The position numbers and the translations under genes are program-made. Below the pieces are notes generated by a model. It had not been told where the DNA came from, did no database searches, and saw only the letters and a list, made by a program, of their open reading frames with translations. Below, one piece after another: positions 1,869 through 56,127 of a stretch of DNA of 64,000 bases (positions within the stretch are counted from its first letter, which is position 1; every line of letters begins with the position of its first letter). Source of the stretch: Octopus vulgaris (taxonomy: Eukaryota); NCBI GenBank assembly GCA_951406725.2, contig OX597816.1, positions 154,442,001 to 154,506,000 on the forward strand, written 5' to 3'.

Positions 1869-1973
1869 AGTCTTATATATACAGCTGTTTCAAATAATCT
1901 ATGATTGGCATCATAATTATGAATATCATGTAATAATATTATTATTACTCAATAATAGTATCATCAATAACTG
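1869..1973 (-). ncRNA. Degenerate hammerhead-like motif with long stem II
   Basis: Minus strand TTGATGA (1967-1961), about 70 nt, then GAAAC-AGCT-GTA (1891-1880); same stem III as the 14.0-kb motif; stems poorly paired. Confidence 0.35.
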
Positions 1974-2169
1974 GCATGGATTTTGAGACTTGTGCGGTGA
2001 AGACATGTTATCCTCACCGGAAGACACTGGCAAGTTGCCTGGTGTCAACAAAGAGAGTGGCATGCGCTAGCAGAAATCAGCAAACTGACTCACAAACCCT
2101 AAAGGATTGGTAGCATCAAGACTGTCAAAAACCATAAAGATGTGGCCAAACATACAAGCCAGCCAACTG

Positions 2170-2423
2170 GCCACTACCATCACCGTCGTCACCACTACAA
2201 CTACATACCACCACTACCACTACTGCAATCAAGACTGCCACAGATACCACCATCACTACAACCATCACAGCTACCATCATCACTGGAACCATCACCATTG
2301 CCACCATCACCAACACTACTAATATCACTGCACCATCAGTACCACCACCACCACCACCACCACCACCACCACCATCACCATCATCATCATCATCATCATC
2401 ATCAGCAGCAGCAGCAGCAGTAG
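2170..2423. repeat. (CAC)/(CAT)/(CAG) trinucleotide repeat tract
   Basis: Seen directly. Confidence 0.95.
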
Positions 2424-2750
2424 CACAAAGTCACATTTTGTTACCTGACAGATGGCAGCAGGGACATGCTATCCAATTCCAATCAGATATCTGAGTTTTT
2501 TTCTGCAGTATTTTGCTAAACTTTTTATTAGGAATGACTGGCTAAAGATGGTAGACTTCAGTATCCATCTCGATGGTCTAATTTAACTTTTGACCAAAGA
2601 TACACTTAAAAAAACAAAATTTATTTCAAGAAACAAAGTAGATGTGTTGAGCCACTTTGTGAGAAACAAATTGATGACCTTGGAAGATTTAATTTATAAA
2701 AAGTACTGCTGCACGTGATCAGTGTTATTAATGATCCTTTTGCCAATAGT

Positions 2751-3175
2751 CTACTGCAACTGGTAGCCAACTGGAAGAATTTCCACTACAACTGGCAGCT
2801 GACTGGGAGATTTTCTTCTGGTCATCAAATGGGAGAATTTCTATTGCAACACACTGCTGACTGGAAACATTTCTATAGCAAATGGTAACCAACTGAAAGA
2901 CTTACTTCTATCTCTGGCAGCCAACTGGGAGAAGTTCTACTGCAATTGGTAGATGACCGGGAAAATTTTTATGGCAAATGGCAGGCAGCTGGTAGAATTT
3001 CTACTGTAACTAGCAGCTGGTTAGGAAAATTTCTACGGCTACTGGTAGTCAAATGGAAAACTGTCTACTGTGACTGGCAAGGAGAATTAGTTACTGTTTG
3101 TAGCCAGGACAGAGAATTGTTGTTGTTATGGCAACTAGATGGAACAATTTCTGTTTCTACTGGTAGCCTACTGTA
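2751..3175. repeat. Degenerate 32-bp minisatellite (about 13 units)
   Basis: Unit ctactgcaactggtagccaactggaagaattt; unit starts at 2751, 2783, 2841, 2873, 2905, 2937, 2969, 3001, 3033 and 3065. Confidence 0.85.
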
Positions 3176-3199
3176 GATAAATCTTTAACATCTGAGAAA

Positions 3200-52151: not shown

Positions 52152-52830
52152 CTCTTCATTATTAGAGGTATGTATGACCTGTCTGATTTGCCCTTTCTTT
52201 ATTTAACACTATAGGGTGTGATTTGAGAATAATTTGGCTGCTATTTCTAACAAGTTGAGTGACCTCATTGAGGCTCTCTCTGATTCTACTTGACTGTATA
52301 TACATATAACACTTCTTCATAACTCTGGCCATGATGGCCAAATCAAACTATACTACAACTAATAATTTTTGTCTCTGCCTGTAAAGCTGGTCTCTTCTTT
52401 ATCTCAGGGTACACCAACATCTCCTTTCTTGTTATTCCTTAATAACCCAGCATAAAGACATGCCATGTGATGTACAACCCATTACTATTAGCACTAAGAT
52501 GGATAGGTGGATATTGCATATTTGATGAATGCCCTTTTGTTCAATTACAGTGCCTAGCTGAAATCCTCTCTTGGAAAAATATCTGTAATAGACTAGTGTC
52601 CTTTTCCGGTTGAGAAATAGTTCTCAACCTTCTTTAGATTTTGGAAACTGGTATATACTCATGTTTACCAAAACACTTTTCTACAATTGCTGTAGATAAG
52701 AGAAAAGCATGAAAGCATATATATATACACACACACACATGTAAGCACTCACACACACACACACACATATATATATTTATATATATATATACACACACAT
52801 GAAAGCATATATATATATACACACACACAC

Positions 52831-53111
52831 ATTCGAGTGAGGTTGTTGCCAGTGCCGCTGGACTGGCTCCTGTGCAGGTGGCACATAAAAAGCCCCATTT
52901 AAGTGTGGCCATTGCCAGTACTGCCTGACTGGCCCTTGTGCCAGTGACACATAAAAGCACCCACTACAGTGGTTGGCGTTAGGAAGGGCATCCAGCTGTA
53001 GAAACTCTGCCAGATCAGATTGGAGTCTGGTTCAGCCATCTGGTTCACCAGACCTCAGTCAAATCGTCCAACCCATGCTAGCATGGAAAGTGGACGTTAA
53101 ACGATGATGAT
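52831..53111 (+). mobile_element. RTE 3' UTR fragment
   Basis: Subrepeats plus cccatgctagcatggaaagtggacgttaaacgatgatga. Confidence 0.9.
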
Positions 53112-54456
53112 ATATATACATACACACACACACACACATATATCAATTTATAATATATATATATATATGTGTGTGTGTGTGTGTGTTATTTTTTCCCTTG
53201 GTTTTAGACTGTTTTTTTAGAGGAAAGGGAGCCTCATTAGTTGAATGAAACCCTGTATGTGATTTAATTCAAGCCACTGGATTCTGGAAGAGTTAAAGAC
53301 AAAATTTGGACCCTTCAATATTTCGACTCAAAATGTAGTGGGATAAGATTATTCATGTTTATTGTTTGTAGCAGTTCCTGATATTGATTGCTTGCTGAGT
53401 CACACAGCTAATGTTTGTGAAAAAGAACAGTTGATTTAAATTTGTATACTATTGGTACTTATTTTATTGAACCAAGAGATGAAAAGCTGAATCTAACTTG
53501 TTCTGAACACAGAATTCAGTATGAAATTTAATCTAGTGTTTTGCCACTTTTGCTGTTTCATCCATTTCTCTACTTCTAGTAGACAAACAGCAATAATAAT
53601 GATCCTTTCTATTATGGACACAAGCCCTGAAATTTGGGGGAGGGAGTTAGTTGATTACATCGACCCCAGTGTTCAACTGGTACTTATTTTATCAACCTCA
53701 GTAGAATTTACTCTCAGAACATAAAGATGAAATACTGCTAAGCATTTTATCTGGCATGCTAATACTTCTACCAGCTCACTACTGTAATAATAATGATAAC
53801 AATAATAATAATAATACAAACAGGAAATCTCCCAGGAAAAAAAGGATTAATTAATCTGTGAAATTCTTGAACTTGTTGCTGCCACCTAACTGTATAAAAA
53901 GTAAAACAATGTTGCTCTTAGAACTGGAGAGCCAGTCATGCTGTTGTGAAACCTTTTAAAAAAAGTTACATTATTAAAGAATTGAAGCACAAAATCGCTT
54001 TGTCAAGTTTGAAATGCATAAAGCAGTACATCTTGATGAAAAGAGAAAGAAAGAAAGGGAAATAAAAATTGTTTTTCTTTTTCTCAAATTCATAATCTGG
54101 GAAAACATTACAGAGATAAGGATAATTGCCAAATTTTAGGTCAGAACACTTTGTGGTTGTGGAGACACGAAAGACTTAAATATTTGTTTTACGCAGGAAT
54201 ATTGACAGCTTTTATGGTACTCAATTTCTTTTGACTTGGCATGTTGCCAAGTTTTGTTTGGTAGGAGGTATAGCCACTCTCTTGTAACTTTGAACTCTAT
54301 GACAAGACATCTAGGTGTGTGGTTAACAAATTTGGTTTGCAACTGTGTACTTGTGTGTTCATTCTCTCTGCATGTCACCTTGGCATAATGTTGTCAATTA
54401 TAGTTTTTGGTTGATCAATATCATAAAAGAGGAAACTGTTGTACAGAAATCTACCA

Positions 54457-55880
54457 TTATCATCATCATCATTTAACATCTGCCTTCCATGCTAGCATAG
54501 GATGGATGGTTCAACAGGAATTCAAAAGTCAGAAGACTGCAGTAAGCGCTGTTGTCTGCATTAGCATGCTTTCTACAGTTGGCTGCCCTTCTTTATGCAA
54601 CCTCTAGCGTATACTGGGTGCTTTTTACATGGCATCAACAGCAGTGATGCCATCAAGTAACTAGCAAGACAAAATCCCTCCACAAAGGCATGAAGTAGTT
54701 TTGAGGGACAGAAAAAAGAAGCCTTGTATTAGAGGGGAAAAATGTTTAACTCAAGTGGAGAGAAAGAGGTGGTGAGGGGGAAGGGGTAAGTGGACTGGGG
54801 ATTGGAGAATGCGAGTGGGTGAGTGAATTCATGAGATTGTGAAAGGAGAATGATAGATTAAAGGTGGGATGTAATGAAGGAGAATAATAAAGGGTGGAAT
54901 GTAATGAGGGGGCATAGATATTGAGAGAGGGTATTAGATTATGTTGTAGGCGAAAAGATTCATCAGGGACATACTGTATGCAAGTGGGTACTTGATGGAG
55001 CAGGTTAGGGCATGCAGCAGGTGGTGAGCATGGGTAGAGGAAGAGAGTGTTATGAAGATGGGTTGTGGGGGAGGTTTGACAGGGTACGGATTGTATGCAG
55101 TGGGGAGGTGCAGACATGAATGACATACCTTTTTGGCCTCAATTTAACTTTGTTGGGTGAGTCTTCTCAAGCACAGCAAATTGCCAGTTGTTTAAGTAAC
55201 AGCCCATGTTTTGCTGCCATGTGGCATAGCTGTCTGTACACAGACATCATACAATCTGCTTTTCACTCTGAGGGAGAGGTCTTTTGTTACCAACAAAGGT
55301 AATAGCTCCCTGGACTTTGCCCGGCCTGTTCTTATTTTAGCAACTAGGCTTTCAGAGCAACCTCCTCCATTGCTAATTTGGTCACCTAGGTAATGTAAAC
55401 TATCTCCTTTTTCTAAGGATTCTCCTCGACATTTGAGGAAGTCTGTTTCCTGTACATTCTTGGTGTTTATTGTACCTGCATATCTGTGACATACAAAGAT
55501 TACTTTCTCTGTTAACCTTCCTGTGATACTGCTACACCGCTTTTGTGTCCATAGCTTTCACTGGGCATACTGTATGGAATTTCTACCTACACTTTTTTTT
55601 ACACATCAAGTATAGGCCAGTTTCTTGAAGGGATTAGTAATTTGTCTACTTTTCCTGCTTACTAGTACTTTGGTCTTTGCTAAGTTAACTATAATTTGAT
55701 TTAGTCCATGCATCCACACTTGAAATTTCTCAAATTCTAGTGGAAATTTAGCTACAAGAACAAGGTCATTGGCATAGAGAAGCTTCCCAGAACAACCAGT
55801 TGTAAATTTTGGTTACAGCCTGGAGGACATTGATAAAGAAGAGGGGACTGAGAACTGATCCTTGATGAACTACCTACACA
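54457..55880 (-). mobile_element. Degenerate RTE LINE (tail 54457-54680, RT 55125-55880) interrupted by purine-rich low-complexity sequence
   Basis: Minus strand HQGSVLSPLFF, LLYANDL and the finger region; (CAT)n tail. Confidence 0.8.
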
Positions 55881-55891
55881 TTAAATTTGTT

Positions 55892-56127
55892 CATTATTTA
55901 CATTATTTACATTTGATGGGTATTTGTCCTCATCTTCTTTGTTGTTAACACAACGTTTTGGCTGATATGCTCTCCAGCCTTCATCAGGTATCTTGGGGTA
56001 ATTTCGAATTTGGATTCTCATTCCTAAGGTATTTTTCGATGTTATTATTATTCAGGTCACTGCCTGGAATCGAACTCAGAATCTTGGGGTTAGTATCCCG
56101 CACTCTTAACCACTACGCCATATGCCC
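55892..56127 (-). mobile_element. Solo tRNA-head plus HHR element (SINE-like derivative of the PLE 3' end)
   Basis: Starts GGGCATATGGCGTAGTGG (A-box), has GAGTTCGATTCC (B-box), then the same pLTR and HHR as 8870-9095, and ends in (TGTAAATAA)2. Confidence 0.88.

Follow-up and report, generated by a model that had tools for sequence, protein, structure and literature searches.

A 64,000 nt stretch of the Octopus vulgaris genome (assembly GCA_951406725.2, contig OX597816.1, positions 154,442,001 to 154,506,000, hereafter the window) contains hammerhead ribozyme motifs belonging to seven repeat families, which we call A to G. Judged from their sequences, these seven motifs are likely to be the 3' end-pieces of unrelated repeats, four of them situated behind the endonuclease genes of Penelope-like elements (PLEs), and to be working or recently working minimal type-I hammerheads that would cut only as pairs. 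A narrower proposal, which we put forward tentatively, is that the most abundant young PLE family runs on a hammerhead with U at core position 6 (U6), that U6 acts as a brake locking the monomer through pairing of core and palindrome, so that cutting would occur only in dimers and perhaps depend on the metal ion as in the A6-to-C variant (A6C), and that a second intact PLE lineage has fixed G3-C8 in place of the consensus 3-8 pair.

A preliminary description of this DNA had named seven cores and read them as a diversified pool of PLE and retrozyme hammerheads. All seven are present where it placed them (Table 1), and each motif has the type-I order of stem I, core, stem II, GAAA, palindrome, a non-G residue 17 and the second strand of stem I. 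The pool is likewise borne out across the seven families, the motifs of D, E, F and G following an open reading frame (ORF) of GIY-YIG type on its coding strand and B resembling a retrozyme. Calling the families unrelated is fair, since the proteins of E, F and locus L220 are 21-30% identical and the D protein has no BLASTP match to them. What survives of the wider claim of hammerheads across unrelated repeat families is these seven families and an excess of matches over shuffled sequence; a further site at 1869 does not, and several window copies have decayed.

A strict descriptor that required stems I-III and left positions 3, 6, 7 and 8 free gave 14 matches in 464 kb (the window plus 200 kb on each side); the same sequence reversed yielded 1, and three shuffles yielded 0-3. 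A looser version, in which stem I was not required, returned 11 matches in the window, which is rich in microsatellites, compared with a mean of 3.1 (maximum 6) in 30 shuffles. Copy numbers in the 2.8 Gb genome (227 contigs), counted as exact pattern matches, are 17,396 for E, 3,041 for D, 1,887 for F, 1,777 for C (a 16-mer), 298 for B and 16 for G; reversed patterns returned 0 for C-G and 3 for B, and 3 of 30 loci fetched with the B pattern were off-family. Family A is known from 9 parsed copies in the window and fetched loci. As anticipated in the preliminary description, a search restricted to CUGANGA would miss part of this pool, namely E, F and G, with ~19,000 exact copies together. The 138 matches of Rfam covariance models to the window (to E=10) include no hammerhead, only low-complexity microRNA models. 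Since neither CUGANGA descriptors nor Rfam detect E and F, hammerheads are undercounted in such genomes.

Core position 6 in family E

Family E, with its CUGUAGA core, had been listed among the hammerheads of the preliminary description. It is no 3-8 variant, as it keeps C3-G8, and its actual deviation, which had gone unnoticed, is the U at position 6. Of the first 100 listed among the 17,396 matches, 96 have U6, as do all 27 PLE-linked loci and 28 of 30 sequence clusters. Invariance of A6 does not extend to E: the canonical base accounts for only 180 matches, compared with 422 for C6 and G6 together. By sequence, E is a variant resembling a member of the minimal type-I PLE hammerheads and not a consensus member. 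Its A6 copies are scattered among U6 subfamilies, and mostly look like later point mutations, because 19 of 30 have a nearest neighbour, judged by flanks, that is not A6.

The connection of E to PLEs is direct. A GIY-YIG query returned 30 loci, and 27 of these have the E motif downstream in the same orientation. Seven of 12 fetched loci with long ORFs or tandem copies (L207-L218) hold two same-strand motifs around one long ORF, forming units of 4,449-4,573 nt that carry a motif at each end and are 96.7-99.4% identical; the ORF matches RVT_1 above cut-off and GIY-YIG below cut-off. E is a young PLE family whose reading frames are intact. When 78 copies were grouped into 30 clusters, motif positions were 90-100% conserved except for N7 (43%) and H17, compared with an average of 77% in the flanks, and residue 17 was A in 20 clusters, U in 9 and G in 1. 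The search pattern behind these copies left positions 3, 6, 7, 8 and 17 and stem I free and fixed the remainder, with at most 4 mismatches. U6 probably gives a slow ribozyme that is still under selection, although we hold cleavage at a useful rate by U6 to be rather less likely than the reading of the seven motifs as a set.

The U6 motif might instead be catalytically dead and retained for a structural role, as a binding signal for a protein (such as the reverse transcriptase, RT, of the element itself) or as a promoter element of the terminal repeat, which we consider rather unlikely. Changes at position 6 are strongly deleterious in vitro (PMC9901934, PMC3088659, PMC7151607), hammerhead-free PLE clades exist (PMC8557442), and the 4-nt loop II of E is as invariant as its core. 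The U6-A15.1 pairing probability in three folded U6 monomers was 0.81, 0.98 and 0.06, compared with 0.00 in three natural A6 copies, and such predicted pairing could either lock the monomer or indicate that catalysis has been lost. On the other side, freedom at only N7 and H17, with G17 avoided, is expected of cleavage chemistry and not of a DNA motif, and is the strongest argument for continuing selection on hammerhead chemistry in E. Natural A6C, moreover, keeps activity, especially with Mn2+ (PMC7151607).

At 34904, the G of the ACGU palindrome in the window copy of E, an A makes up ~4-22% of contig depth in four runs and breaks the palindrome; it may reflect CpG decay or a subfamily. In contigs from runs labelled organisms A-D, the variants listed include none at position 6 of E or positions 3 and 8 of F, to which we attach no weight since such contigs bring together merely similar sequence.

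The 3-8 pair and the stem III palindromes

The proposed three versions of the 3-8 pair are present, as C-G in A to E, U-A in G and G-C in F. With positions 3, 7 and 8 free in the search pattern, G3-C8 occurs in 98 of the 100 matches listed first for F, and 23 of 23 PLE-linked copies have it too; the Watson-Crick pair is retained and the consensus letters are swapped. Diverged F copies in L064, L108, L138 and L167 also retain G3-C8, one of them together with a compensatory stem II change. The F motif lies ~1.1-1.5 kb behind GIY-YIG in 23 of 25 loci, the GIY-YIG family differing from that of E, and the ORF (1,025 aa) contains YVDD and a GIY-YIG match above cut-off. The PLEs in L007 and L015 were set aside as hosts of F, the association being one of neighbouring or nested insertion; the true partner is a different GIY-YIG family.

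Copies of G have U3 in 15 of 16 cases and A8 in 16 of 16, and relatives of the PLE remnant in the window lie upstream of G motifs in L092 and L101 (2 of 16 loci). Both G3-C8 and U3-A8 keep the tertiary Watson-Crick pair and probably act at a reduced rate. Two further U3-A8 motifs, unlike G and with palindromes ACGCGU and AUAU, were seen in L125 (upstream flank, 187977, minus strand) and L144 (downstream flank, 178930, minus strand), respectively.

Stem III is palindromic and loop-poor in all seven families, and its symmetry persists in D despite a double change and in B despite a difference of 2 nt in length. The preliminary description had taken the palindromes to be family-specific, with AACGTT as stem III of A. 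The palindrome of A is ACGU, identical to that of E; B has either ACAUAUGU or ACAUGCAUGU and D either ACACGUGU or ACAUAUGU, so that palindromes vary within B and D and the B2 and D2 subfamilies share one. We therefore consider it improbable that the stem III palindrome alone is a family barcode restricting dimer cleavage to its own family. The palindromes of F (AAUAUU) and G (ACCGGU) do pair with those of other families by 1-2 bp at most and that of C by no more than 3 bp, and the shift in D is a symmetry-keeping double substitution, all of which would suit a barcode. Besides the sharing of palindromes, it is contradicted by the 22 of 122 cross-family pairings among 12 representatives in which stem III reaches at least 4 bp, by the status of ACGU as the commonest metazoan form (PMC4209133), and by the usual placement of partners in cis on one transcript, where a barcode is unneeded.

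Stem I of at least 2 bp combined with stem III of at least 3 bp is found in only 8 of the 122 pairings, all 8 involving the core-bearing strand of E on C or D, with E on D predicted to be the best cross pair. Selectivity would arise from stems I and III together, because in the double-hammerhead geometry stem I also forms between copies. Partner selectivity, mostly via stem I, is plausible from these pairings, and may be a by-product of divergence among elements whose partners are normally on the same transcript. A literature search on PLE hammerhead heterodimers found none.

It is highly improbable that the variant cores are chance resemblances or mutations confined to individual decayed copies, for although shuffles yield loose matches at the rate given above, several window copies are mutated and G is weak (16 exact copies, 2-bp stem I in the window), the near-empty reversed-pattern controls and the family-wide states of E, F and G speak against it, and for E and F the fixation of the cores contradicts it. 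The 1869 site is a separate matter: GAAACAGCUGUA is present, an intact core and stem II are absent, no relative occurs among fetched loci, and it may be a chance look-alike. Core-like sites at 25749, 30172 and 58997 on the minus strand and at 2854, 18932, 27108 and 47709 on the plus strand failed the strict descriptor and were taken as chance; that at 58997 has no relatives among fetched loci. A quick pattern for the reverse order (GAAA before CUGANGA) gave two unconvincing plus-strand sites, at 47657 and 58170.

Host elements, proposed mechanism and features of the window

The core C3-U-G-A6-N-G8-A9 ... G12-A-A, with A15.1-U16.1 and H17, is complete in A, B, C and D. Between the window ORF, which ends at 33758, and the D motif lie 650 nt, and in L344/L345 too the motif is placed behind the ORF. 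The 899-aa D-type ORF of L345 contains YRDD, DKT and a C-terminal YVG motif; as it has no Pfam match, the PLE assignment of D rests on these motifs, of which DKT resembles the Hydra clade of PMC8557442 and is treated here as a lead only. Family B has a non-coding unit with a period of 354 nt in the window, 342 nt in L321/L322 and spacings of 354-355 nt elsewhere, no linked ORF having been found, and thus falls within the 170-400-nt range of non-coding tandem units with a type-I hammerhead.

Conserved cores and stem covariation had also been expected. Conservation is found in the cores of E and F, and covariation in D and B; G has none above shuffles, F and G offer a single example of compensatory change each, and stem II of E is uninformative. 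In D, 93% of cells are paired, compared with 84.6% in shuffles, and double changes are seen at five pairs, among them the centre of the palindrome, where C-G becomes U-A; CpG decay is another possible source of a change from CG to TA. Among 27 copies of B, with pairs counted by structural role in a script, stem I has 6 A-U, 7 G-C and 12 G-U and stem II has 11 A-U and 14 G-C.

The A copy at 9008 has G2.1 in place of the C found in 8 of 9 parsed copies, so that the base of its stem I is a G-G mismatch. The ORF fragment upstream of it, which we take to resemble a Penelope/Poseidon RT C-terminus, finds no support in Pfam, Atlas or BLAST. The ~1.4 kb upstream of C showed no GIY-YIG in the 16 of 30 loci with a parsed upstream core-like match. 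A tRNA-like segment with A-box-like and B-box-like motifs lies ~80-130 nt upstream of the A hammerhead, at 8873-8930 (plus strand) and 56060-56125 (minus strand); A-box-like matches occur in 5 of 9 copies and B-box-like matches in 3 of 9, and ARAGORN calls no tRNA. The segment is possibly an RNA polymerase III promoter, and A possibly a hammerhead element resembling short interspersed nuclear elements.

The mechanism that we propose follows PMC4209133 and the review PMC6765202; the position of the motifs, their family-wide fixation and their pairing potential are directly seen. If transcription read through a tandem or flanked element, two motifs would come to lie on one RNA, where the palindromes of both copies would form a common stem III and the 5' strand of stem I in each would pair with the 3' strand of its partner. 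Cleavage after residue 17 would then yield unit-length RNA for reverse transcription. In E, U6 would let U4-G5-U6 pair with the palindrome, and the monomer is predicted to be locked off, while partner choice would be set by stems I and III jointly.

Several observations weigh against hammerheads that cut in this way. The lowest-energy dimer differs from the double hammerhead in every short family folded, by 9.7-13.1 kcal/mol in E and 3.9 kcal/mol in F, in nearest-neighbour models that ignore tertiary contacts. Stem II of E shows no informative covariation: a search for double changes gave 77 matches (control 4), and among the 26 of 30 fetched loci that were scored, 14 of the 26 double changes were A-U, attainable by two common transitions. 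The conservation of loop II in E is partly imposed by the search pattern. The number of covarying pairs in D did not beat shuffles (280/500), and its covariation is a matter of few subfamily splits and not of independent events; covariation in G was not above shuffles. No search tied A or C to a coding element. Finally, Naiad PLEs spread without canonical hammerheads (PMC8557442), so the spread of E is no proof of cleavage.

Table 1. Hammerhead motifs and associated elements in the window (window coordinates)
Feature	Coordinates	Strand	Details
GAAACAGCUGUA without intact core or stem II	1880..1891	-	unconfirmed as hammerhead or repeat family
Family A inverted copy	7874..7916	-	core from 7911; 3-nt deletion in stem III; inverted repeat 7831-8123 / 8788-9091
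ORF fragment upstream of family A	8487..8810	+	
Family A motif	9003..9048	+	CUGAUGA 9008-9014; palindrome ACGU 9039-9042; U17 at 9043
Family C motif	13990..14098	+	CUGACGA 13992-13998; stem II domain of ~86 nt with AGCC/GGCU as closing strands; palindrome ACAGCUGU 14088-14095; A17 at 14096; stem I 2 bp
Family F inverted twin	21674..21723	-	core from 21716; arms 21591-21731 / 21733-21873, 99% complementary
Family F motif	21741..21790	+	GUGAACA 21748-21754 (swapped G3-C8); stem I 7 bp, stem II 5 bp; palindrome AAUAUU; U17 at 21783
Family B element	22727..23163	-	354-nt unit plus 83-nt direct repeat (partial tandem); retrozyme-like
Family B motif	22894..22939	-	CUGAUGA 22933-22927; stem I 6 bp; palindrome ACAUGCAUGU; C17 at 22900
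Third family F copy, absent from the preliminary description	24366..24415	-	copy at 24408, with C8U (GUGAAUA)
Family D element ORF, 3' part	32709..33758	+	93% identical to 899-aa ORF in L345
Family D motif	34407..34486	+	CUGAAGA 34410-34416; long stem II; palindrome ACACGUGU 34475-34482; A17 at 34483
Family E motif	34875..34910	+	CUGUAGA (U6) 34879-34885; stem II GAGC-GUAG-GCUC; stem I CUUU/AAAG; palindrome ACGU; A17 at 34906; solo 3' end of PLE family
Family G motif	42364..42397	-	UUGAAAA (U3-A8) 42395-42389; palindrome ACCGGU; A17 at 42366; 2-bp stem I
Frameshifted PLE remnant (RT + GIY-YIG)	42482..43767	+	G motif is inverted 3' end in front
Family A decayed copy	55947..55992	-	core from 55987; G12A

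In families A, B, D, F and G the 3' ends of elements are often duplicated as diverging inverted copies (window 21591-21873 and 7831-9091; L340-L346), as described for PLE insertions. A further hammerhead family is present at L126 as an inverted pair in the upstream 200 kb (192110 on the minus strand and 192410 on the plus strand); its palindrome, ACUAUGCAUAGU, is 12 nt long and its stem I 8 bp. Other repeats in the window include tandem repeats of 62-65 nt at 22269-22460, 24600-24900, 52634-52963 and 60323-60538, which accompany remnants of RTE-like long interspersed nuclear elements, an RTE-like RT fragment at 25491-26045 with an RVT_1 match, and a DDE_1 transposase fragment at 5693-6178 (PF03184, E 3.7e-16). 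The opposite strand of locus L003 has an uninterrupted 182-aa frame at ~1587-2130, which by its motifs we take to resemble dCMP deaminase and which is possibly a processed gene copy.

Relation to known hammerheads

The presence of many families in one genome, the palindromic stem III and U3-A8 have all been published before. Cervera and de la Pena (2014, PMC4209133) describe minimal PLE hammerheads with palindromic stem III, U3-A8 and low dimer activity, and Lunse, Weinberg and Breaker (2017, as cited in PMC6765202) describe PLE hammerheads with short stem III that cleave as dimers. The families reported here resemble the pseudo-long terminal repeat hammerheads of PMC4209133 in the flanking repeat behind an RT/GIY-YIG ORF, the extra base after A9, the palindromic stem III, G10.1-C11.1 in most families, the many families in one genome, the inverted pairs and the U3-A8 variant. 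They differ in the G3-C8 and U6 cores, neither of which is reported in the available part of that paper, and in the stem II domains of C and D, 54-105 nt compared with the 7-8 bp described.

Family B is like the metazoan non-LTR (non-long terminal repeat) retrozymes of PMC7229834 in its non-coding unit of 342-355 nt, partial tandem arrangement, type-I hammerhead and 6-bp stem I. Unlike them, it mostly occurs as one unit plus a partial or inverted copy and not in long arrays, has a palindrome of 8-10 nt, and is known here from DNA alone. The core of G is a published natural U3-A8 variant (PMC3088659, PMC7151607), a pair known also outside PLEs (Perreault 2011, PMC3088659).

Literature searches, PMC11014351 included, found neither a natural G3-C8 nor a fixed U6 in the parts of the sources available, and Lunse 2017, Przybilski and Hammann 2007 and the supplement of PMC4209133 may bear on this. 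Natural G3-C8 does not appear in the available part of PMC3088659, and PMC3884650, to the same extent, mentions it only as a tested variant. The natural fixed G3-C8 of F and the fixed U6 of E thus appear to be new variants within the known hammerhead class.

A natural variant at the same core position as in E is A6C, slow in Mg2+ and active in Mn2+ (PMC3088659; Naghdi 2020, PMC7151607). The A6C example comes from phage Bcep176, whereas E has U6, fixed in ~17,000 copies of a young retroelement. As an intact, recently amplified element one core base off consensus that keeps the hammerhead signature elsewhere, E offers a direct test of whether PLE hammerheads must cut, and how fast, with its natural A6, C6 and G6 copies as ready controls. 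For F, the closest comparison is the C3G/G8C swap made in a type III hammerhead, where strong positive epistasis rescued activity and every other mutant of the CUGA region, single or double, was low (Roberts 2023, PMC9901934). The core of F is that same swap, found described only as a laboratory mutant, and here, as its natural counterpart, it has become fixed in a PLE family.

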